Positions 5,606 through 32,420 of a stretch of 64,000 nt of DNA are shown one piece after another. Made by a program: the position numbers and the translations under genes. Below the pieces are notes generated by a model that was given only the letters and a program-made list of their open reading frames with translations, was not told where the DNA came from and did no database searches. The DNA is from Candidatus Eiseniibacteriota bacterium (GTDB lineage Bacteria > Eisenbacteria > RBG-16-71-46 > CAZAMP01), in contig OZ245046.1 of the NCBI GenBank assembly GCA_965224245.1, forward strand, positions 3,008,001 to 3,072,000, given 5' to 3'. Positions within the stretch are counted from its first letter, which is position 1, and each line of letters begins with the position of its first letter.

Positions 5606-5640
5606 GTCCTTTCCGACCTCACCGGATCGGGTTAAAGGAC
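5606..5640 (-). promoter_or_regulatory. PyrR-binding RNA stem-loop in the pyrR leader
   Basis: Minus strand reads GUCCUUUAACCCGAUCCGGUGAGGUCGGAAAGGAC: CUUUAA plus an AUCCnGnGAGGU-type upper stem-loop and a closing GUCCUUU/AAAGGAC stem, about 100 nt upstream of pyrR. Confidence 0.9.
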
Positions 5641-5795: not shown

Positions 5796-5814
5796 GTGGA
5801 TACGAGGTTCCCAC
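5796..5814. promoter_or_regulatory. 19-bp imperfect palindrome, putative enhancer (UAS) for a sigma-54 activator
   Basis: GTGGATACGAGGTTCCCAC, about 150 bp upstream of the -24/-12 site at 5966; resembles three copies at 23729-23846. Confidence 0.55.
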
Positions 5815-5965
5815 CCGTAATCGATTTCGACAGCACCACATACGACGATCGGCGGGGGTGGCGGGTACGCGTGTATCCCCTCGTCCGGCGAGGGCGCCCG
5901 GATGCGTGAATACGGTCGACCGGCTATGACGTGCCCCGCGAGCAAGTTACCGGCGGCGACGAATC

Positions 5966-5980
5966 TGGCACACGCATTGC
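5966..5980 (+). promoter_or_regulatory. sigma-54 (-24/-12) promoter
   Basis: TGGCAC-ACGCA-TTGC is an exact match to TGGCAC-N5-TTGC and lies in an intergenic region. Confidence 0.75.
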
Positions 5981-5991
5981 GTTATGACAGG

Positions 5992-6406
5992 CGCGTGTGG
6001 ATGGGTGGTGTGGATGTGTTAGGCAAAGCCCCGGAATGGACGCGGATGGAGCGCCGGGCGCGAGTGGGAGAAAAGAGCACGGGTCGAGGGAGTTCCGCGC
6101 TCGATGTTCCAGTCGTTTCCATTCCGGTGGCGGCGCCTTCTCTGACGGATGTGCGGAAAGCTCTCGCACGGCGACTACGACACCCGACGAGTGGCTGCCC
6201 GGTTCTGTGAGGCTCCCCCGACTGCTGGATGGTGCCCAGTCCGACTCCGCCTGGTTGCCGGGATGTCACTCTCGCTCGACACGTCGATCTCGCGACCAGG
6301 CGTCCGCGAACGCGAGAGCTTTCCCTTTCGAGTTGAAGGTGGGGCCGACCTCTCGGGCTGATGTTTTGGGAGGGGCGGTCTTGGGGGCCGGCCTTCACCT
6401 TCTTTT
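5992..6406 (+). ncRNA. putative structured non-coding RNA of unknown family
   Basis: Long-range helices CCGGAATGGA(6031-6040)/TCCATTCCGG(6118-6127) and GGAAAGCTCTCGC(6155-6167)/GCGAGAGCTTTCC(6312-6324); terminal hairpin 6335-6402 followed by TTTT; no convincing protein. The 5' end is inferred from the sigma-54 site. Confidence 0.55.
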
Positions 6407-6486
6407 CCCCGAACTCACCACCGACGCCGTCCGACTCTCGCCGCCATCACCGCCACCACCGCGCGTCACGCCGACTCTCACGCACG

Positions 6487-19329: not shown

Positions 19330-20061
19330 CTAATCGGGATCGAACACGACGCGGATCGACGTCCAGGCCGCATGTGGGCGACCGCCCCGACGGGCCGGCT
19401 CGAAGCGCGCGCGCGACGCCACGGCCAGTGCCGGGGCCCGGAACTCGTCCGGGACCGCGACCGCATCGTCGGGAATCTCGGCGTCGGAGACCCGGCCGTC
19501 GGCATCGACCCTCACGCGAACCTCGACCACGACCACGCCCCGCGACCGCGAGGCCTCGGGGTAGTGGGCCGCCGGAAGGGCGACGACGACCGGGCGCGTG
19601 GCGTCGCCCTGGCCGCCCGATTCGGTGACGGACGACAGGGCCGGGCGCGCCGCGGACGATCGTGTTCCGTCGAGCCGCTCCCACGCGGCGCGGGCGGCCG
19701 GCCCTTCGGACCGCTCGGACGGACCGGTCACCTCCGGAGGGGTCTGGAGCGGGGTGTCCGCCGGCTCGGGGCGGGGCTCGGGCGGAGGCTCGGCCACGTC
19801 CGGGAGATCCGGAGGGTGTGCGAGATCATCCGCCCCGGTGGGTGCGCCATCGGCGGACGGGATGGATTCGCGGGCGATCGCGACGACGTGAATGGGATCG
19901 TGCGAGGCGAACGACACCGATGCAGCGCCGATGGCGCCCCGATCGGTGTCGCCGAGCGAGCGGACGAGGTCGGCGGGAACGAGCCAGAGCACGGCACCGT
20001 GGATCACGCAGGCCGCCGCCGTCGATGCGATCCGGTGTCGACGAGGCGGTCGCCGGCGCAT
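19330..20061 (-). CDS. TonB-like energy transducer
   Basis: N-terminal TM with His (CVIHGAVLW), Pro-rich linker, C-terminal YPEASRSRGVVVVEVRVRVDADGRV...FEPA. Confidence 0.75.
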   Translation of the reverse strand: MRRRPPRRHRIASTAAACVIHGAVLWLVPADLVRSLGDTDRGAIGAASVSFASHDPIHVVAIARESIPSADGAPTGADDLAHPPDLPDVAEPPPEPRPEPADTPLQTPPEVTGPSERSEGPAARAAWERLDGTRSSAARPALSSVTESGGQGDATRPVVVALPAAHYPEASRSRGVVVVEVRVRVDADGRVSDAEIPDDAVAVPDEFRAPALAVASRARFEPARRGGRPHAAWTSIRVVFDPD

Positions 20062-20068
20062 GATCGGG

Positions 20069-23000
20069 TCAGGCGCGGCGGTCCAACCCGTAGCGCGCGA
20101 TCTTGTTCTTGAGTCCCTTGCGACTGAGACCCAGCGCCACCGCGGCCCGGCTCTTGTTCCAGGCGTTGTCCTCGAGCGCACGCTGGACGATCTGGCGCTC
20201 GATGCCGTCGAGCTGCTCGCGGAGCGAGACTCCAGTGCGAGCCGGCGGCTCGGGGGCGAGCGTCACCTCGCTTTCCAGAAGACGCGACGGCAGCAGGTCG
20301 ATTCCGATGGTCTCGTTCTCGTCGGCGAGCGTCACCGCCCGACGCATGACCTTCTCCAGCTCGCGCACGTTTCCGGGCCAGTCGTACTCGACGAGCTTCT
20401 GCATGGCGATGCGGGAGATGCCCTTGATTGTCTTGTCCAGCTTCTGGGCGAAGACGTCCGAGAAGAACTCGGCCAGGAGCGGAATGTCGTCCTTGCGACG
20501 ACGCAGCGACGGGACGTGGATCGTGATGTCGTTCAGGCGGAAGTAGAGGTCCTTCAGGAACCGTCCCTCGGCCACCTCACGCCGGAGATCGGCGGACGTC
20601 GCGCAGACGATCCGGATGTCCAGGGGACGGTAGGCGTGGCCGCCCACGGCCCGGACCTCGCCCGAGTCGAGCAGGTGCAGGAAGCGCCGCTGGACCTCGA
20701 GCGTGGTCTTGTCGATCTCGTCGATGAACACCGTGCCGCCCTCGGCCTCCTCCAGGATGCCCTTGCGATCGTGTGTGGCGCCGGTGAACGCGCCCTTCAC
20801 GTGACCGAAGAGCTCGCTCTCGAGCACCGATTCCGACAGAGCCGCGCAGTCCACGGTCGTCAGCGCGGCGTCCGCGCGCGAGCTGCAGAGATGAAGCGCG
20901 CGCGCGATCAGCTTCTTGCCGGTCCCGGTCTCGCCCTGGAGCAGCACGCTGAGGTCGCTGTCGGCCACGCGGCTGACGAGGCCGAGGATCGAGCGCATCT
21001 CGGCGTTCTCGGTGACGATGTCCGCCAGCGCGATGGACCGGTCGATGCGATCGAGCTCCCGCAGGCCGCGACGGTTTCGAATGCTCGCTTCCTCCAGGAA
21101 CCCCGCCAGCTGCCGGGCCAGCGTCATGCAGTAGCTGACCTCGGCCTGATGGAACTCCGGATTGCCGGCGTCCAGCACGCGGTCGACGTAGAGCACGCTC
21201 CACACGCCGGCGCTCTCGCGCAGGGGTACCGCGATCGCGGACTCGACCTCACGCCCGCTGGCCAGGGGGCCCAGGCTGCGTCGCTTGTTCCCACTGGCCA
21301 TGCCCAGGAACACCGCCGGACGGTCGCTGGCCGGCCAGCCGGCCGTGAACGCCGACGGGCGGGCGAACGACCTGCCGATGGAGAGCGCCGGGATGCCGTG
21401 GGCGCCGATCACTCTCACGTCCGTGCTCGCCACGTCGAGCATGCTCGCACCGGCACACGGGATCGTGGCGGTGAGCACGCCGAGGAACTCGGAGATCTTG
21501 TCGTCGAAGGACCGATCGGACTTCAGCACGCGCTCCATCTTCTGGTGCGCGTCGAGGCTGTCCTTCGTCGACACGGCGTTCTCGACGAACGTGCACTCCA
21601 GACGCTGCTGCACCTCGCTCAGCTGATCGTCGAGCGCTCGGGCCCCGTCGAGCGTGCCCAGGAGCTCACGTGCCCGTCCGAGACGCTCGGCCGCGCGATC
21701 GACGGCGCGGTGCCGGATGTCCTCGTCGGCGATCGCCAGGAGGGTGCGGAACTCGGCCCGCGGGTGACGCAGCGCGCGGTACCCGTCGAGCGCGTCCTGG
21801 AGGTGCTGGACGCCGCTGATGCGGGTGCGGTCGTCGGTGGACTCGAGCTCCAGGCGTCCCCGGAACTCGATGACGCGGGTGAGCCAGAACGACTCGCCGG
21901 CGCGGCGCAGGATCTCGACCGCCTGGCGAGCGGCCTCATCGGCCCGCGCGTGATCTCCGGCTCCGGCGTGCAGCTCACCGATCGTCAGGAGGAGGCGCGC
22001 TTCCAGAAGCCGGTTGCTGGTGGTCCTGGCGGACTCGAGCCCGCGGGACGCCACCGTGAACGCCTCGCCCTCGCGTCCCTCCAGCGCCCTGACCCGTGCG
22101 ATGACGCGGTCCAGCTCGCCCTCGAGACGGTTGCGCCCCAGGCGCGCCGAGATGTCGGCCGCCTTGGCCGCGAAACCGGCTGCGTCCGCCGCGTTGCCGG
22201 CGCCCAGCGCCGACTCGGTGAGACCGAGATACGCGGACAGCATGCCGTAGAGGTGCTGCTGCAGGGCGCTCAGCTCGAGCGCGCTCCAGAACAGCTCGCG
22301 CGCGCGATCGTATTCCTCGCGCATCAGATGAACGTCGGCCTTGCCCGCCAGCGCGAGCGCGGAGCTCGCCGCGTCGCCGATCTCGCGGGACTTGCGGTGC
22401 GATTGCTCGAAGTCGTCGAGGGCCTCGTCGAGCTGACCCAGCATGGTGTGCAGGATGCCCTGGGTCTGGAGCACGGCCGGCAGCCCGGAGTAGTCCCCCT
22501 CGATCGACATGAGGTTCTGGGAGACCTGGCAACACTCGAGCGCGCGGCTCCAGTTGCACGCGCGGCGGTGAAGCATGCCGATGTTTCGGTAGATGCGCGC
22601 GACGTTGGACAGGCTCCCGAGATCCTTGAAGACGGTCAGGGCGTCCTGGTACATGCGCATGGCCGTGTCGACGTCGTCGCCGCGGTGGGCGATGCTGCCA
22701 CGCAGCTGGAGTGCCTGGCCCAGCTCGAGGCACGGCTCGGTGTCGACGAGGAGGTGCATGGCCGCGTCGACGTTCCGGGTCGCCTCGCCCAGCTGGCCGC
22801 GGCGGGTGCGAACCCGCGCGAGCTGAAGCTCGATCCGCACGCGCTCGATCAGCGGCGTGGCCTCGGTCATCGCGTGAGCGGCCTCGAGCGCCGTCGACTG
22901 CGCGTCGACGGCCTCTCCCAGACGAAGCTGGCAGTCGCTGATGCGACGCAGCACGGACGCGCGCAGCCGGGCGCCGTCACCGTTCAACGTCGCGAGTGCT

Positions 23001-23167
23001 TCGCGATAGTGCTGGACGGCGCCGGCGAAGTCGGCGCTCTCTGCGGAGAGGTCGCCGAGCTCGATCAGCCGCGCGCCGGTCGGTCGCGATCGGTCGGTGT
23101 CGTTGGGATCGCCGGCGGACGGCGCCTGGGCGGTCCGGTCGACGTTTCGAGCCTCATGCGTAGCCAT
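20069..23167 (-). CDS. sigma-54-dependent enhancer-binding protein with N-terminal TPR array, GAF-like region, AAA+ and Fis-type HTH
   Basis: Walker A GETGTGK, ESELFGHVKGAFTGA (intact GAFTGA), Walker B VFIDEI, WPGNVREL, HTH NKSRAAVALGLSR; roughly 550 aa of TPR-like helices at the N-terminus and no receiver domain. Confidence 0.93.
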   Translation of the reverse strand: MATHEARNVDRTAQAPSAGDPNDTDRSRPTGARLIELGDLSAESADFAGAVQHYREALATLNGDGARLRASVLRRISDCQLRLGEAVDAQSTALEAAHAMTEATPLIERVRIELQLARVRTRRGQLGEATRNVDAAMHLLVDTEPCLELGQALQLRGSIAHRGDDVDTAMRMYQDALTVFKDLGSLSNVARIYRNIGMLHRRACNWSRALECCQVSQNLMSIEGDYSGLPAVLQTQGILHTMLGQLDEALDDFEQSHRKSREIGDAASSALALAGKADVHLMREEYDRARELFWSALELSALQQHLYGMLSAYLGLTESALGAGNAADAAGFAAKAADISARLGRNRLEGELDRVIARVRALEGREGEAFTVASRGLESARTTSNRLLEARLLLTIGELHAGAGDHARADEAARQAVEILRRAGESFWLTRVIEFRGRLELESTDDRTRISGVQHLQDALDGYRALRHPRAEFRTLLAIADEDIRHRAVDRAAERLGRARELLGTLDGARALDDQLSEVQQRLECTFVENAVSTKDSLDAHQKMERVLKSDRSFDDKISEFLGVLTATIPCAGASMLDVASTDVRVIGAHGIPALSIGRSFARPSAFTAGWPASDRPAVFLGMASGNKRRSLGPLASGREVESAIAVPLRESAGVWSVLYVDRVLDAGNPEFHQAEVSYCMTLARQLAGFLEEASIRNRRGLRELDRIDRSIALADIVTENAEMRSILGLVSRVADSDLSVLLQGETGTGKKLIARALHLCSSRADAALTTVDCAALSESVLESELFGHVKGAFTGATHDRKGILEEAEGGTVFIDEIDKTTLEVQRRFLHLLDSGEVRAVGGHAYRPLDIRIVCATSADLRREVAEGRFLKDLYFRLNDITIHVPSLRRRKDDIPLLAEFFSDVFAQKLDKTIKGISRIAMQKLVEYDWPGNVRELEKVMRRAVTLADENETIGIDLLPSRLLESEVTLAPEPPARTGVSLREQLDGIERQIVQRALEDNAWNKSRAAVALGLSRKGLKNKIARYGLDRRA

Positions 23168-23213
23168 TTCGACAAGTCCCCCCGGGACGCACGAGAATCG
23201 GACGACTAGCCTT

Positions 23214-23516
23214 CTACGGGGCCGTCCAACGCAAGACGCTGAGCGTGATCAATGCGACGAGTCTCGAGAGCGACAGCGACCGCTGCCGGACCGGAGTGGA
23301 CTCGTCCTCGAGCACCGTGAACTGACCGACACGATCGAACGGCTCGTCGGGCTCTCCCTGGCAGTTGAGCTCCGGCTCGGGATCGCCGGGCCCCATGTAC
23401 GTCCCGCCGCCGTCGTTCGGCTTCACCTGCTCCCACTCGGCGTGCGCGCTGGGCACGGCAAGCAATGTCGCTCCGAGGAGCGCCATGACGAGCCCGACCT
23501 TACACACCTTCCACAT
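23214..23516 (-). CDS. small secreted peptide/protein (100 aa) with G[DE]P[DE] repeats and a hydrophobic C-terminal helix
   Basis: RBS GGAGGT before ATG 23516; Sec-type signal MWKVCKVGLVMALLGATLLAVPSAHA|E; co-oriented 46 bp upstream of the enhancer-binding protein gene. Confidence 0.75.
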   Translation of the reverse strand: MWKVCKVGLVMALLGATLLAVPSAHAEWEQVKPNDGGGTYMGPGDPEPELNCQGEPDEPFDRVGQFTVLEDESTPVRQRSLSLSRLVALITLSVLRWTAP

Positions 23517-23614
23517 CGCACCTACCTCCAGGATCGTCGCCATTCACAGCGGGCCGCCAGGTGTGGCGGGCTGGGCTGCGGCGACACGTGAGCATCACAC
23601 GTCCCCATTGCATA

Positions 23615-23629
23615 ACAAGTTCCGGGCCA
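23615..23629 (-). promoter_or_regulatory. sigma-54-like promoter of the peptide gene
   Basis: Minus strand TGGCCC-GGAAC-TTGT: correct spacing, two mismatches to TGGCAC-N5-TTGC, about 100 bp upstream of the ATG. Confidence 0.5.
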
Positions 23630-23728
23630 ACGGCGGCCGTTCCGGACGCGATCGTGGAAGTGGGAGCGAACGTGACGTTTGGCGATCTGGCTCCCACGTC
23701 GTCACCGGGACCGCGACGGGCAACCGGG

Positions 23729-23846
23729 GTGGTTACTTCCTAACCACTCTCGCAGTGTAGCCGAGAACATCATTCATTCCAAAGGTTTTGCAGATGTATC
23801 CACGGTAACCACCCCGAATCTCGCGAGGTGAGTCCAAGGTACCCAC
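23729..23846. promoter_or_regulatory. three 19-bp imperfect palindromes (putative UAS cluster)
   Basis: GTGGTTACTTCCTAACCAC (23729-23747), ATGTATCCACGGTAACCAC (23794-23812) and GTGAGTCCAAGGTACCCAC (23828-23846) in an AT-richer intergenic stretch. Confidence 0.6.
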
Positions 23847-23922
23847 CGGAACACGCGCGCCACCGGCCCCGGCTGTGTGATAAACTCCCATCCAGTCATC
23901 ACTTCCGGCAACAGCCCGCGAT

Positions 23923-25284
23923 ATGGATCGACCCAGCATGAGTCGTCAGCGCATCGATTATCGCCGCCTGCTTGCCGAGGTGATCCCGCGCGGTCCCCTG
24001 CCGGACGACGTTCGGGTGGCCGTGGATACGGCGCTGGCGTCCCCGACCGAGCCGGCGTGCGAGCGTGTCGCCCGGCTGGCCATCGACTCCCTGGTCGCGG
24101 TGGGGCGCCTCGAACGTCTCGACGACCCCGACCCGCAGCGCGCGGTCGAGCGCTACGTCGATACGGCGACCGGTGACACGATCACCGTCCAGTGGACGGT
24201 GGCCACCCGGGCCGAGCGGATCGTGCGCGTGGCGATCCCCCCCGACGCCGGACGCCACGCGCTCGATCTGGAATCGGTCCGCGAGATACTCGACATCGAT
24301 CAGCACCTGTTCCAGGCCGACGGCCGGTCCCCGAACCCGTACGGCGAGATCGTCCGGGCCGCGCTGGCGCGGGTCACTCAGCTCACGGGAGCGGACTTCG
24401 TCACGTTCGTGCCCGCAGAGCGCCTCTCACACCCGGGGACGCCGGACTTCGGCCTCCCCGAGACCCCGCCGGAACGCGTTGCGCCGCTCAGGCGACTGGC
24501 CCCCCCGGCCGAACGGTCGGCGGTATACGTCCCGGACGTCGCGTACGACGATGATCTCGTCGCGATCGCGCCGGCGGCGGACTTCGCCTCGGTCGCGTTC
24601 GCCGGGGTCGGACGCGATGCGACCTCCATCGATGGGTACCTGGAGGCGTGGAGCCGCTCGCGCGACTTCCTGGATGCCGACGGGCTGACGGCGTTCGCGC
24701 TGTTCGCCGATCGCCTCTCGGCCACGCTGCGCAAGGCCTCGGTGCTCGAGCTGCTCGTGTACCACGACGCGCTGACCGGGCTCCACAATCGCAGCTACTT
24801 CAACCAGCAGATCGCCAAGGAGGTCGCACGCGCGCGCCGTGCGGGCCAGAGCTTCGCGCTCGCGATCGCCGACATCGACGACTTCAAGGGGATCAACACC
24901 CGGTACGGGTACCACGGCGGGAACGACGTTCTCGAGCAGGTGGGGCGCCTCGTCCGCGCGTCGGTGCGGCCGTTCGACGTGGCCGCACGCTGGGGCGGCG
25001 AGGAGTTCGCCCTGGTCCTGACCGCCCCCATCGACGAGCAGGGCGCGATCGCGGTCAGCAACCGGATCCGCGAGTCGGTCAAGGCCACGTCGTTCGCCGT
25101 GACCGACCTGGAGCAGACTACCCACGTCGTGCCGATCACGATCTCGGTGGGCGTCTCGGTGTTTCCATCCGACGCGAGCGCGCCCGAGGAGCTCTGGGCC
25201 ACGGCCAACGCGGCGCTCGGACAGGCCAAGCGCCGGGGCAAGAACCGGGTCGTCGCCGCCTCCTCGCGGGGTGAGGTCGCCTGA
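23923..25284 (+). CDS. GAF-like sensor diguanylate cyclase
   Basis: HDALTGLHNR, DIDDFKGIN, RPFDVAARWGGEEF (active site plus RxxD I-site), AKRRGKNRV. Confidence 0.92.
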   Translation: MDRPSMSRQRIDYRRLLAEVIPRGPLPDDVRVAVDTALASPTEPACERVARLAIDSLVAVGRLERLDDPDPQRAVERYVDTATGDTITVQWTVATRAERIVRVAIPPDAGRHALDLESVREILDIDQHLFQADGRSPNPYGEIVRAALARVTQLTGADFVTFVPAERLSHPGTPDFGLPETPPERVAPLRRLAPPAERSAVYVPDVAYDDDLVAIAPAADFASVAFAGVGRDATSIDGYLEAWSRSRDFLDADGLTAFALFADRLSATLRKASVLELLVYHDALTGLHNRSYFNQQIAKEVARARRAGQSFALAIADIDDFKGINTRYGYHGGNDVLEQVGRLVRASVRPFDVAARWGGEEFALVLTAPIDEQGAIAVSNRIRESVKATSFAVTDLEQTTHVVPITISVGVSVFPSDASAPEELWATANAALGQAKRRGKNRVVAASSRGEVA

Positions 25285-27871: not shown

Positions 27872-30800
27872 TCAGTTCGACTCCGCCACGCGGGCGATCT
27901 TGCCTTGCTCGACGACCCGGGCGCCGTCGGGCTTCACGATCTCCAACCGATAGAAGTAGACGCCGCTCGCCACCAGATCGCCGTCCTCGTCCCGACCATC
28001 CCACGCGATGCGGTTCAGGTCCACAACGGGATCGGGTTGCTCGAGACGGCGGATCAGGCGCCCCGACAGCGTGTAGATCTTGACCGACGCGGACCGCGCC
28101 GCGCGCGTCACCCGGTAGAACACGTCGGTGTGGCGATCGAACGGATTCGGGAAGACGAAGTACCGCTCGAGCGAGAACGCGCCGACACTCTGCACCTCGA
28201 TCGACTCGGCGCGTTCCGAGGAGCCGGTCGACCAGCGGAGCCCGATCGCGTTGCTGCCGTGGTTGAGGACCTCGGACCCCAGGCCGGCCTCGACGACCCA
28301 GCCGAAGCTGGCCGCGCCCGCGACGATCCCGTCGTCCGCGGGGAGCTTGATCGCGTCCATCGGGTCGCCGTTCAGCGTCAGGTCGACCTCGTCGGCGCCC
28401 AGCCCCACCGGGCTGTCCAGCCGGGCGCGAATGACGGCCGTGGGCTCGATGAAGGACCCGGGCACGATCTCGCGCTCGTTGCCGTCGACGACCTCGTAGA
28501 AGCGAACGTCGACCACGGACGAGAGCGTCACCTCGCGAGGGCGACCGTAGAAGTCGGACACCTCGAACACGAGCTCGTAGTCGTCGGCCCGGAGCGGGGC
28601 GTCGTAGGCGAACGTCCACTCGCGCACGAGCCCCGAGAGCGGATCGACGCCGCTCTCGCGCCGCGTCACCGTGTACTCGCTCGGATCGAGCCAGTCGACG
28701 ACTCCGCCGGCACGCTCCCCGACGCGCACGTCCGCGGAGTCGATCGGCGCCTCGTCGAACACGTGGGCCGCGAAGTGCCGGAGCCGTGTGTCGGCGTCGG
28801 GACCGACCAGCTCGCTCCCGCTGGTGACCGGGTCGGGCGCACCGAGGTCGTCCCACGGCGCATCCCCGGCGTCCTGCCAGACGCGCAGCCGCGGCGGCGC
28901 GAAGTCGATGCGCGTGGCCGGATCACCGAGCGTCACGTACGACTCGACCATGCCGTCCAGCGTGCCCTCGCCTTCGGCCGCCAGGAGGTTCTTGGTCCCC
29001 AGCATGATCTCCCCGATAGTCAGGCCCGGATACCCGGTGTATTCGTCGGCCAGATACGGACGCGAGAACCACGACGAGAACACGGCCCGTTCGATGGGTG
29101 GGTTCGACGAGAGCCACTCGAACCCGCTGCTGGCCACGCTGGCCACGCCTCCGACCTCCGGCTTGGTCAGTAGCTGCTCGGCGATGCAGTCGCCGTCGCC
29201 GTTCTGTCCTTCCAGGCGGCTTCCGAACTCCGCCAGGTGACAGGCGAAGAAGAACCACACCGGGAGCCTGGCGTAGTTCTGGAGACGGTTCACGTCCTGG
29301 GCGAACCCGTCTCCTCCGCTCACGAACTGATTGACGATCAGCACCCACTCGTGGGCGGTCACCTTCCGGTTCCCGTGGCCGGAGAACGCAACGAACAGGT
29401 GCCCGCGGTTGACCGTATCCACGAACAGGCTGTCGAGGTTGAAGTCGTTGCGGAGGTGGCGGCGCGTGCAGGCCCAGTCGCAGCCGGGAGTCACGCAGTT
29501 CTCGGGATAGCCCGGCGTCCCGAATCCGCTGGTGTCGCGACCCAGTGCCGGTAGCCGGTCGATCAGGTCGGTCAGATAGAAGCGCTCGATGCCGAAGTCG
29601 GTGAACCCGGCGGCGCGAATCGTGTCGATCGCGGCCTCGTGGGTGCGGACAAACTCGAGCTCGCTCCGCTTGCAAGTGTAGCCGTCGGTGCCGCCGGTGC
29701 CGCCCAGTCCGCCCGAGTAGAAGTCGTCGGCGAAGAAGAGCCCCCGGTTACGCCACTCCTGGCTCTCGGGTGACGCCTGGAGATCGGTCTCGTAGCGGAT
29801 GATCTTCTCGGACATGGTCTCGGCCTCGGCCAACGATCCCGCCGGGAGCCGCCCCACCATCATCGAGTTGAACGTGTCGTCGTCCTCGACCCCGTCGGGA
29901 TCCTGGATGAACCAGTTGTCCGACTGGATGAAGGGCTTGGAGATGCCCGTGTCCGACACGTTGCCGAGCACGCTGAAGCTCGGGACGTAGTTGGGCTCGG
30001 CGGTGAAGGCGCCGGTCCCCGCGATGCGCGAGACCCCGTAGTAGTCCTCCGACGCGTCGCCGACCAGGAGGAGGTACTGGGGCGCCACGCCCCCCACGGC
30101 GGGCCGCATTCGATAGGCGAACCGCACGTACTCCCGGATCGCCTCGGGCGTGAAGAGCCCGCCCGCGAACTCGTCGTAGACGTCGCTGACGTTGGCCACC
30201 TCGCACCGGTGTCCCAGGCTCTGGCGATGCTGAACCAGGTCGTCGATCCCCGGAGCGAACGCGTCGTGGACCACGACGAGGTAGTCGGCATCGAGTGCGC
30301 CCGAGACCAGATCGGAGAGCGACGACGGCGTGTCCAGCTCGAGCGCCTCGTCGTCGATCTCGGGGATCCCCGCCACGGGCTGGACGACGTAGTCGCGCCG
30401 TCCGCCGACACTGGGGTCGTCGAACACGAGCGTGTTCCCCGCGCCCGCCTCGATGTCGAACCCGAAGAGGGACACCGGCAGATCGGGGTTGGTCGTGTCC
30501 AGGAGCACGACGTCGGCCGGGTTCGTCGTCGGCACGTTGCCGATCTGAAAGCGCACGTGGCCGGTGGCGATGTCGTTCGTGAAGTCGAGGTACCCGTCGT
30601 GCATGCGATAGAGCCGGCGATAGCCGGTCTCGAACCAGTTCACGGACATGTTCATGTTGGCCGGATCGGTGAGCGTCATGACCAGCTGATGGCGTCCGCT
30701 GCCGATGAACTCCGGTCTCAGCGTGAGCCCGCCGCTGTCGTACGTCTGCCGCGTGTCGCCCAGGAACGAGCGCGGCGTGGGGTCGAGGGGCCGGCCCATG

Positions 30801-32212
30801 TCGGTCGGGCTGTCTCCGATGACGATGAACGTCTGATACGTCTTGGCGTTCTGAAACAACCCGCGGTACTCGGCGCGGAATCCGAAGAGCGTGCCCGGCT
30901 CGGGATCGTGGACGTCGAACGGGAGGCGCAGTCCGTACTCGTCGGCGTCGATGAAGACCAGGTTCCAGTAGCTCATCAGCACGTGATCGACGCGCTGGCG
31001 CAGCCGGATGAGGTCGTCGTCGCGGAACGAGTACCAGTAGTAGTGTTCGTTCTCCTCGTGGTGCGTCCAGTGCGCGAACGACGTGGGCTCGGCGTCCGGG
31101 GTGCCGCTGGGCGCGACCGACCGGCTGGGCATGACCGACCCCTCGCCGGGGGCCACCGTGAGCCAGTAGACGTTCTCCGTGCCGTAGCGCGCCTCCGCCT
31201 CGGTGAAGTTCCGCTGCGTGGACGCGTCGCGACCGTAGAACACGAGGAAATCGTCGGCATCGAACATCCCGTCGGAGTCGACGTCGGTCACGCGGATCCC
31301 GATGGGTTCCCTCAGGAACGGGTTTCCGTCCACCTCGTCCAGCTCGGCGGGGTCGTAGGACCGGGAGGTCATCTGGAGATCGGAGAGCGCCGGCGTCTCG
31401 GTCCAGCCGATCGCGCGGAGCGACGCGTGGGATACCCGGACCAGCGCGTTGTCGTCGATGCGGATCTTCACCTCGGGGGCGCTCCCGAGCCGCCCGTGCC
31501 GCCGGAGCGCCGGAGACACCACCTGCGCGCGGCGGTGACGCCAGTGCCTGGCGTCCTCGTCGTTCAGGATGCGACCCCGATAGAACCGCTCGTCACCCCC
31601 TCCGGACGGAACCGAGGTGACCGCGACGCGGCGCGTGGGATCGGGCTCGAACCGCACCTCGAACACCACGCGACGCGTCACCACGAGAGCGGGATTCGCC
31701 CCGCCTCTCGTCCGGAACGGCGTCACCCGGACGCTCGCCACCGCTTGGTTGCGGATGTTGCCCGCCTCGCCGAGCATGGCCACCGAGGCCGGGTAGAGAT
31801 CGGACCGGTCGTACGTGGCGAGATCGGGATCGAAGGACTGCACGGGGGTCGGCATGCCGGCCGGATCGTCGGCCGGCAGGAAGCGTTCGGACGGAAACGG
31901 CGTCACCCGGACGCCGTCGATCTCCGCGAGGTCGGTCTCGAGCACGCGGACGCGGGCGAGCGTGTTGGCCGGAAGCCCGATCACGGTGGTGAAGACCGGG
32001 AGTCGCGGGCGTCCCTCTTCGCGGGTCCGTGCGATGTGGCCGCTCTCGATGTCGACGTAGCCCTCGAGGGCGCCCGGGACGAGCTCGTATGCGCCCAGCT
32101 CGAACGCGACGCGCACGTGCGTCTCGTCACTCTCGATCACCGAGAAGCCCGCGGCCAGCGCGGACGTCACGGCCGCACACTGGAGCAGCAAGAACGATAT
32201 CCAACCGCGCAT
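27872..32212 (-). CDS. C25 (gingipain) family cysteine peptidase, PorU-like, with C-terminal FlgD-Ig/T9SS-type domain
   Basis: Signal peptide, propeptide region, YLLLVGDAS, VGRLP, catalytic His (FSGHGN) and Cys (FACHL), C-terminal FPNPF...IYTLSGRLIR...WDGRDEDG...SGVYFY. Confidence 0.88.
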   Translation of the reverse strand: MRGWISFLLLQCAAVTSALAAGFSVIESDETHVRVAFELGAYELVPGALEGYVDIESGHIARTREEGRPRLPVFTTVIGLPANTLARVRVLETDLAEIDGVRVTPFPSERFLPADDPAGMPTPVQSFDPDLATYDRSDLYPASVAMLGEAGNIRNQAVASVRVTPFRTRGGANPALVVTRRVVFEVRFEPDPTRRVAVTSVPSGGGDERFYRGRILNDEDARHWRHRRAQVVSPALRRHGRLGSAPEVKIRIDDNALVRVSHASLRAIGWTETPALSDLQMTSRSYDPAELDEVDGNPFLREPIGIRVTDVDSDGMFDADDFLVFYGRDASTQRNFTEAEARYGTENVYWLTVAPGEGSVMPSRSVAPSGTPDAEPTSFAHWTHHEENEHYYWYSFRDDDLIRLRQRVDHVLMSYWNLVFIDADEYGLRLPFDVHDPEPGTLFGFRAEYRGLFQNAKTYQTFIVIGDSPTDMGRPLDPTPRSFLGDTRQTYDSGGLTLRPEFIGSGRHQLVMTLTDPANMNMSVNWFETGYRRLYRMHDGYLDFTNDIATGHVRFQIGNVPTTNPADVVLLDTTNPDLPVSLFGFDIEAGAGNTLVFDDPSVGGRRDYVVQPVAGIPEIDDEALELDTPSSLSDLVSGALDADYLVVVHDAFAPGIDDLVQHRQSLGHRCEVANVSDVYDEFAGGLFTPEAIREYVRFAYRMRPAVGGVAPQYLLLVGDASEDYYGVSRIAGTGAFTAEPNYVPSFSVLGNVSDTGISKPFIQSDNWFIQDPDGVEDDDTFNSMMVGRLPAGSLAEAETMSEKIIRYETDLQASPESQEWRNRGLFFADDFYSGGLGGTGGTDGYTCKRSELEFVRTHEAAIDTIRAAGFTDFGIERFYLTDLIDRLPALGRDTSGFGTPGYPENCVTPGCDWACTRRHLRNDFNLDSLFVDTVNRGHLFVAFSGHGNRKVTAHEWVLIVNQFVSGGDGFAQDVNRLQNYARLPVWFFFACHLAEFGSRLEGQNGDGDCIAEQLLTKPEVGGVASVASSGFEWLSSNPPIERAVFSSWFSRPYLADEYTGYPGLTIGEIMLGTKNLLAAEGEGTLDGMVESYVTLGDPATRIDFAPPRLRVWQDAGDAPWDDLGAPDPVTSGSELVGPDADTRLRHFAAHVFDEAPIDSADVRVGERAGGVVDWLDPSEYTVTRRESGVDPLSGLVREWTFAYDAPLRADDYELVFEVSDFYGRPREVTLSSVVDVRFYEVVDGNEREIVPGSFIEPTAVIRARLDSPVGLGADEVDLTLNGDPMDAIKLPADDGIVAGAASFGWVVEAGLGSEVLNHGSNAIGLRWSTGSSERAESIEVQSVGAFSLERYFVFPNPFDRHTDVFYRVTRAARSASVKIYTLSGRLIRRLEQPDPVVDLNRIAWDGRDEDGDLVASGVYFYRLEIVKPDGARVVEQGKIARVAESN

Positions 32213-32420
32213 GAAAACCCCCGTTTTGTCGGTGGTCTGGTGACTCGGCACAAACGTGAGGCTTCTCGGCCGTTCGGGGCTGTTGGTGTCTACACGCCCG
32301 GCATCGGGGCAGTTCCCCCCGCGGCGCCCGGGAGCCCCGGGCCGGGACCCCCGATTGTCCGCCAACCGGCAAACTGCTACATTCTCGCGCTTTCGGTCTC
32401 TCATCGAGGATCCAGTCATC

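Follow-up and report, generated by a model that had tools for sequence, protein, structure and literature searches.

The TPR regulators of the RRNPP(A) group of Bacillota (NprR/NprX, PlcR/PapR, and Rap/Phr) lie beside genes for small exported peptides. Among sigma-54 systems, PrsR, which is associated with the PEP-CTERM-box, controls secreted proteins that carry a C-terminal sorting tag, and at glnA (glnAp1/p2) a sigma-70 promoter is interleaved. Bacterial enhancer-binding proteins have been described as binding tandem palindromes upstream of −24/−12 elements, with looping that is often helped by IHF and a GAFTGA loop that touches sigma-54 (PMC7057263). LuxO in Vibrio is a sigma-54 activator with noncoding RNAs (Qrr) as its main outputs, as outlined in PMC12101431, and its site, TTGCAWWWTGCAA, is palindromic around a spacer of 3 bases (PMC10162802). 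The overview that covers LuxO (PMC12101431) describes agr/RNAIII of S. aureus as a system whose regulator, linked to a peptide, drives expression of its own operon and of a long RNA with regulatory function.

The locus described here lies in a 64,000-nucleotide stretch (hereafter the window) of the chromosome (C1) of a Candidatus Eiseniibacteriota genome (G000), and is centered on a peptide-activator-TonB operon on the minus strand. The first gene (23214..23543, likely start 23516) encodes a small exported protein with a signal peptide, an acidic G(D/E)PD motif, and an amphipathic C-terminal end. It has no Pfam or NCBIfam family, and both the G(D/E)PD core and the amphipathic tail are found again across an alignment of 23 orthologs. 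The second gene (20069..23167) encodes a sigma-54 activator of 1032 amino acids with the organization TPR-(GAF-like)-AAA+-Fis-type HTH. PF00158 and PF02954 are matched and GAFTGA is intact, indicating that the AAA+ domain, its loop, and the Fis-type HTH are all present; the HTH spans about residues 975–1032, and its recognition helix reads LSRKGLKNKIA. Among solved HTH structures, FleQ and 2M8G come closest, each matching weakly. The TPR region gives just generic TPR and weak MalT-like TPR matches, and the GAF-like assignment is a reading by eye of a region with no Pfam GAF match. A TonB C-terminal-domain protein (19330..20007, minus; PF03544, TIGR01352) follows the activator; similar C-terminal ends follow it in three related genomes (G001, G011, and G037) and not at most other loci. 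A divergent GGDEF gene (23938..25284, plus; PF00990) shares the intergenic region. The window scan found no sigma-54 element before this gene, and a GGDEF-like divergent reading frame was also seen, by eye, at loci without the palindrome; it is probably a conserved neighbor and not a regulon target.

The resemblance to RRNPP(A) and agr/RNAIII is one of layout only. Unlike in RRNPP(A), the TPR region forms the N-terminal part of a fusion with an AAA+ sigma-54 activator, and the host, as its TonB genes indicate, is bounded by an outer membrane; binding of the peptide is hypothetical. Unlike agr, the operon has neither a membrane histidine kinase nor an AgrB-like gene, is predicted to be sigma-54 dependent, and belongs to a diderm, with peptide signaling being hypothetical. 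The likeness to LuxO/Qrr lies in the predicted RNA outputs and in the 3-base spacer of the palindrome. However, the input is a TPR region rather than a receiver (LuxO model NF041946 scores 226 bits against a cut-off of 800, with no receiver match), the site is different, and the peptide operon would be autoregulated. The RNAs are also longer and without an Rfam relation (no Qrr-family RNA at E up to 1 in 16 loci searched), and Hfq was not found in the G000 genome, which is 97% complete. In contrast to NtrC-type control, there is no two-component input, the sites are about 65 bp apart and 170–210 bp upstream, and the sigma-70 promoter is weak and putative. Two targets end in a SWSAIRKFF-like tail, reminiscent of PrsR, but the activator scores 283 with TIGR02915 (cut-off 503) and only one tailed gene occurs among five promoters. 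The literature as covered (titles and abstract starts, outside subscription journals and preprint supplements such as RNA-motif catalogues) held nothing on the motif, activator, or RNAs, and no paper pairing 'Eisenbacteria' with 'sigma-54'. The class of mechanism is known; the motif, regulon, RNA2 family, and predicted specificity residue are new within the reach of these searches.

The palindrome, GTGGNTAC-N3-GTANCCAC, very likely serves as upstream activating sequence for the TPR-AAA+-HTH activator (20069–23167), which would act on its promoters through sigma-54 and looping. The case is computational, built from the motif, its spacing, its conservation, the set of targets, and covariation between helix and base. 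By analogy with known sigma-54 biology, from which binding, looping, and activation are taken over, activator dimers would occupy a primary site about 170–210 bp upstream of the −24/−12 element and, in many cases, another one some 65 bp nearer to it. The DNA would be bent by IHF-like elements, and the AAA+ ring, with its GAFTGA intact, would open the sigma-54 closed complex. The activator would thereby switch on its own operon, a positive autoregulation, together with two RNAs (RNA1 and RNA2), a TonB-family gene (C1:4223199-4222612), and a secreted protein of 211 amino acids (C1:5763135-5763770). The regulon most likely comprises the operon that encodes the activator and its secreted peptide, genes of uptake type, and two structured RNAs that are uncatalogued, with five promoters in this genome. 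TPR-gated sigma-54 activators are an unstudied class, met here in an uncultured phylum, and they would thus gain a regulon concrete enough to be tested, along with a motif for binding, a residue predicted to set specificity (Asn pairing with A, and Gly/Ala/Ser with C), and an RNA family spread over eight families.

A sequence-only reading of the window had placed three copies of the palindrome upstream of the peptide gene and one upstream of an orphan RNA, and the four 19-mers are indeed found there, beginning at 23729, 23794, 23828, and 5796. With distances counted between the first base of a site and the T of TGG, the three lie 118, 183, and 217 bp from the peptide promoter and the fourth lies 170 bp from that of RNA1. 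The weakest-looking of them, at 23794..23812 (matrix score 11.9), is the one at the conserved spacing, 183 bp compared with 181–209 bp in orthologs, and is taken as the predicted primary enhancer site. The predicted second site (23729..23747, score 22.1) is 65 bp closer to the promoter, and the third (23828..23846, score 14.6) appears to be accessory. The primary site of RNA1 (5796..5814, score 21.4) is kept in the sister genus (G001), at 178 bp. The RNA promoter had been taken as having a single site, overlooking a degenerate second site with a 4-base spacer (5861..5880, read by eye) 65 bp downstream of 5796; the G001 RNA1 promoter likewise has its second-best score 65 bp downstream. The arms at 23725–23736 and 23805–23816, reported as a perfect 12-bp inverted repeat, are exact reverse complements. 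They have no separate meaning, since the sites at 23794 and 23729 form a 65-bp tandem pair whose outer half-sites account for the repeat.

The −24/−12 element claimed for the peptide gene is present at 23629–23615 on the minus strand (TGGCCC-N5-TTGT, score 9.4), though it is not canonical, having TTGT at −12. G001 shares this feature, while other families have canonical TGC at the orthologous place; of the first 11 orthologous promoters compared, 9 end in it. The element of RNA1 (5966..5980, plus) is canonical and perfect, and is the only match in the window at one mismatch or fewer. Between the two main sites upstream of the peptide gene is a possible weak sigma-70 promoter, TTGGAA-17-TACACT (23754..23782, minus; 8 of 12 consensus bases). 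It falls below the cut-off of the sigma-70 scanner, which made no call; any basal expression that it would give is speculative. Operons of family f11 have TTGACA-17-TATnnT upstream. The window sequence is not an obvious assembly artifact: contigs of two samples from one study, one of which may be the source sample, cover 21674–24181 with zero differences.

A weight matrix was built from 11 sites in genomes other than G000 and scanned across the 6.45-Mb chromosome of G000. The sites at 23729, 5796, 23828, and 23794 ranked 1, 2, 9, and 18, respectively. Enrichment of the motif upstream of −24/−12 elements was also evident, as a sigma-54 element lies 165–215 bp from three of the 14 top-scoring sites in the genome (0.0018 for a random position; 0 in 10 control windows). 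The site is specific to a subset of promoters: just four of the 109 strong sigma-54 elements in intergenic DNA carry it. These four belong to RNA1, RNA2 (C1:5841107), the secreted protein (C1:5763053; 211 amino acids, no family), and the TonB-family gene (C1:4223335; two sites). The peptide promoter, which is under the score cut-off for strong elements, is the fifth of the regulon. A site at C1:6147077 (score 16.8, promoter at 237 bp) was not counted, as it is inside a predicted gene. The regulon proposed in the sequence-only reading, namely the activator's own operon and RNA1, is supported in both its members but is incomplete, the predicted regulon being larger and including RNA2 outside the window.

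Phylogenetic footprinting drew on 206 genomes of the phylum, all from one class; the search for related loci returned generic activators only. Upstream DNA was present for 18 of the first 20 activator loci taken, and the palindrome was found at 12 of these (G000, L002–L011, and L015) and was absent from six (L012, L014, L016, and the paralog-type L018–L020). Of the loci that have the Asn helix described below or belong to the Asn clade, the 13 that scored above 19 all have the site upstream of the activator operon, and so do further loci of G004, G025, G028, G043, G047, and G051; this scoring covered families other than f8, f9, f17, and f18. Neither the site nor a matched sigma-54 promoter was found at the 13 scored operons of f13 and f15, including the Asn-keeping G033 and G076, so autoregulation is not universal. 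A strict pattern combining site and promoter matched 10 of the 206 genomes and none in the control. A looser pattern allowing two mismatches was noisy (93 matches versus 63 in the control, in 28 genomes); 28 loci were picked from it by hand, and four (L096, L097, L098, and L104) were dropped as in-gene or non-canonical. Targets in relatives comprise the orthologous operon, RNA2, a TonB-dependent-receptor-like gene (G011, G025, and G037; plug and carboxypeptidase-regulatory domains were found for G037), and small secreted proteins (G001 and G011). By eye, the gene after RNA2 in f7 genomes (L093, L094, L095, and L105) resembles the TonB-family target at C1:4223199.

The helix of the activator reads LSRKGLK-N-K in f1, f4, f6, f7, f11, and f14, and mostly K-G/A/S-K in f13 and f15. 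Sites were picked by half-site positions 1–4 and 8 only, and position 7 was then read. It is A in 26, T in three, G in one, and C in none of 30 half-sites from 15 Asn genomes, and C in 27 and A in five of 32 half-sites from 16 Gly/Ala/Ser genomes. The comparison leaves aside G018, G028, G043, and G112 (helix not obtained), G021 (A/A), and G031 (contig end). Exceptions are G094 (Gly), which has A/A, and G020, G118, and G124, which are mixed. One residue of the recognition helix thus appears to track one base, Asn going with A and Gly/Ala/Ser with C, and Asn-adenine contacts are a common recognition pair. In a tree with a midpoint root and two paralog outgroups, Asn looks ancestral, with about 3–4 changes; with so few independent events, the covariation is suggestive and not a statistical proof.

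This covariation bears on the most serious alternative, in which another sigma-54 activator, conserved in the same families, uses the palindrome and controls the operon and the RNAs. The genome has about 35 sigma-54 activators (CsrA is also present), the operons of f13 and f15 are without the site, and shared ancestry alone can yield both co-occurrence and covariation. Against this, just one of the 35 has a strong site near its gene, and this is the window activator (22.1; next 9.3). Within f15, moreover, the base change follows this particular helix, as G033 has Asn with A/A and G076 has Asn with G/A, while most of their neighbors have C. On the evidence of sites near activator genes and of this helix, control by another activator is considered unlikely. 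The earlier proposal that the palindrome is the site of the TPR activator, defining a regulon of its own operon and the RNA, is supported by footprinting, ranking, specificity with respect to both activators and promoters, and covariation.

The spacing of sites and promoters weighs on a second alternative, that the palindrome is the operator of a regulator unrelated to sigma-54 (LexA-like or another repressor) or an architectural site, with the nearness of sigma-54 elements being incidental. One site in G000 is upstream of the divergent uvrA, and the weak sigma-70-like promoter overlaps the window sites. However, no site is found upstream of lexA (best score, −0.3) or recA (6.1), which does not fit a LexA/SOS box, and the neighbors of RNA2 differ between genomes. 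The association with so few of the strong sigma-54 elements also argues against an operator, as does the position of the primary site, which is 168–209 bp before −24 across 41 promoters, these having been selected partly on that spacing. An operator or architectural site is very improbable. In 25 of the 41 promoters the best secondary score is 63–67 bp downstream of the primary site, where four would be expected, with kin among these not being independent. A loose IHF pattern, run with no shuffle control, occurs at 40–79 bp (19 promoter counts) and 140–199 bp (17) among the 41, and at none of four tested G000 promoters.

Chance matches, or a DNA or RNA hairpin arising from the 12-bp repeat, are hardly credible and largely refuted: two of the four sites have 2–3 mismatches and the original consensus was built from these same sites, but the independently trained matrix gives ranks 1 and 2, the best scores are reached by 0 of 300 shuffles each, the strict pattern has its hits, the motif is conserved in other families, and orthologous promoters keep the tandem spacing and not the long inverted repeat. 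With up to two mismatches to the consensus, the window has three matches versus 0.11 expected, a number reached by 0 of 100 shuffles. With up to one mismatch there are only three sites genome-wide, two of them among the four window 19-mers. The palindrome is real.

RNA2, which lies outside the window, is the most conserved target of the predicted regulon and its putative ancestral output. The predicted transcript (C1:5841134-~5841385; with its promoter, G000:C1:5841108-5841385, L124) is about 250 nt long with, like RNA1, a long hairpin, has a terminator-like end, is divergent from uvrA, and has a sigma-54 promoter with an enhancer 181 bp upstream. Members in f7 and f14 are about 440 nt and have extra conserved 3' motifs. 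The RNA contains an invariant stretch, CCAACCCCGGCA, which includes the loop CCAACCCC; the loop is predicted to be mostly unpaired in most members outside f7 and paired in five of six f7 members. Its basal stem has compensatory changes at four of six pairs, with 96.7% of cells paired as compared with 20–56% in slid controls. No Rfam match was found (E up to 1; 16 loci searched), and RNA2 merits its own family description.

The query for RNA2 consisted of promoter and loop, with the enhancer left out. RNA2 occurs in 37 of 206 genomes (36 of f1, f6, f7, f11, f13, f14, and f15, plus G004 of f4), and the palindrome is upstream of it in all 36 genomes for which upstream DNA is available. These families are those with the closest HTH matches; weaker HTH matches occur in nine genomes of f9, f17, and f18. 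Nineteen genomes matching the RNA2 pattern with one mismatch (f5, f8, f9, f16, f17, and f18) were treated as chance, because controls match at a similar rate. Among distinct metagenome matches, partly from the same organisms as the genomes, the site is present in 12 of 20 with an RNA2-like stem and 0 of 25 without. The neighbors of RNA2 vary among genomes. A second RNA2 copy, in G058 (C7:1491455-1491529, L299), has a near-consensus sigma-54 element to itself.

The most likely role of RNA2 is regulation by base pairing through its exposed C-rich loop. In RNAIII, C-rich loops serve as seeds. The complement of the loop, GGGTTGG, occurs in the operon leader region in 11 of 17 genomes. In f7 it falls at the ribosome-binding site of the activator, and in f11 and f6 it precedes the peptide. 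The leaders of G000, G001, G004, G014, G033, and G051 do not contain it. The RNA2-leader duplex has p below 0.05 in only 4 of the 17 genomes and is not significant in G000 or G001, and the seed complement shows no enrichment ahead of predicted gene starts in G000 (2 of 142, with a home-made gene caller). Feedback of RNA2 on the operon leader is for these reasons only a tentative lead. A 13-base complement of RNA2 at C1:4387569 lies between divergent genes, off any called start, and was set aside.

RNA1 (predicted, 5992..6410, plus) has a long 5' hairpin carrying a 27-nt core (6071–6097) that is identical in G001. Site and promoter occur upstream of pyrR at only 2 of 30 loci (G000 and G001), both of which share the core, so the link to RNA1 is real but confined to one family. 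An exact 22-mer of RNA1 was found in 2 of 201 genomes. RNA1 has no Rfam match, and its whole-length folding z-score is about 0. Identification as 6S RNA was rejected, the 6S gene being elsewhere (C1:1389857). Duplexes between RNA1 and RNA2, considered under a sponge idea, fall at different places in G000 and G001. As to a possible CsrB/RsmZ-type sponge, RNA1 has 13 GGA motifs in G000 and 10 in G001, but just one in the conserved core; CsrA is encoded in the genome. On the minus strand, the core (window 6069–6103) reads as a hairpin followed by a U run, so that a terminator function is also conceivable; the plus strand is favored for RNA1 by G-U pairs within the long stem around the core. Also upstream of pyrR, a minus-strand stretch (window 5607–5640) is conserved in G001 and several other genomes. 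It resembles a PyrR-binding attenuator loop and has no Rfam match at gathering score.

Only gene order and the TonB genes in the regulon point, weakly, to control of the activator by the peptide, and suggestions as to the targets of the RNAs are similarly weak. A complex prediction for the TPR region (520 amino acids, 27-row alignment) with the peptide (45 amino acids, 23 rows) scored 0.02 and carries no weight either way. It is conceivable, though doubtful, that the system forms a cell-to-cell circuit in an outer-membrane phylum, in which the exported peptide returns to the cell with the aid of TonB and is sensed by the TPR region, with RNA2 being independent of Hfq and in some families feeding back on the ribosome-binding sites of the operon. 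The activator would then amplify its own peptide and uptake genes, and an RRNPP-type input, LuxO/Qrr-type wiring, and an RNAIII-type output would be joined in one system. If the peptide does control the activator, intracellular peptide signaling, known from Bacillota, would reach diderms by way of sigma-54 and regulatory RNAs. In a laboratory sigma-54 host, the RNA2 promoter would be a usable reporter for the peptide turning the activator on or off.

A gingipain-like C25 peptidase with a FlgD-type C-terminal domain (window 27872–32419, minus) is encoded 4 kb from the peptide gene, and this large enzyme is a possible candidate for processing the peptide. A second TPR sigma-54 activator in G000 (C1:2409080-2412700, L120; helix ISYPTLLAKV) likewise lies behind the gene of a small exported peptide. 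This peptide carries a GDPDD motif, its gene has the promoter TTGACG-17-TAAAGT, and no site of the palindrome motif is near the activator. Paralogs like L120 occur across the class. The tails SWSAIRKFFSDD and SAEAIKRLFSDD end the 211-amino acid target in G000 (C1:5763135-5763770) and a 57-amino acid target in G001 (C64, L102), respectively, the latter being nearly just signal peptide and tail. A related C-terminal pattern occurs in 71 of 4867 predicted G000 genes, and the shared pattern suggests a sorting signal. Elsewhere in G000, two copies of an inverted-repeat element, GGGGTTGGGCCTTCAACCAACCCC (C1:2492831-2492860 and 2493783-2493810), lie about 950 bp apart.
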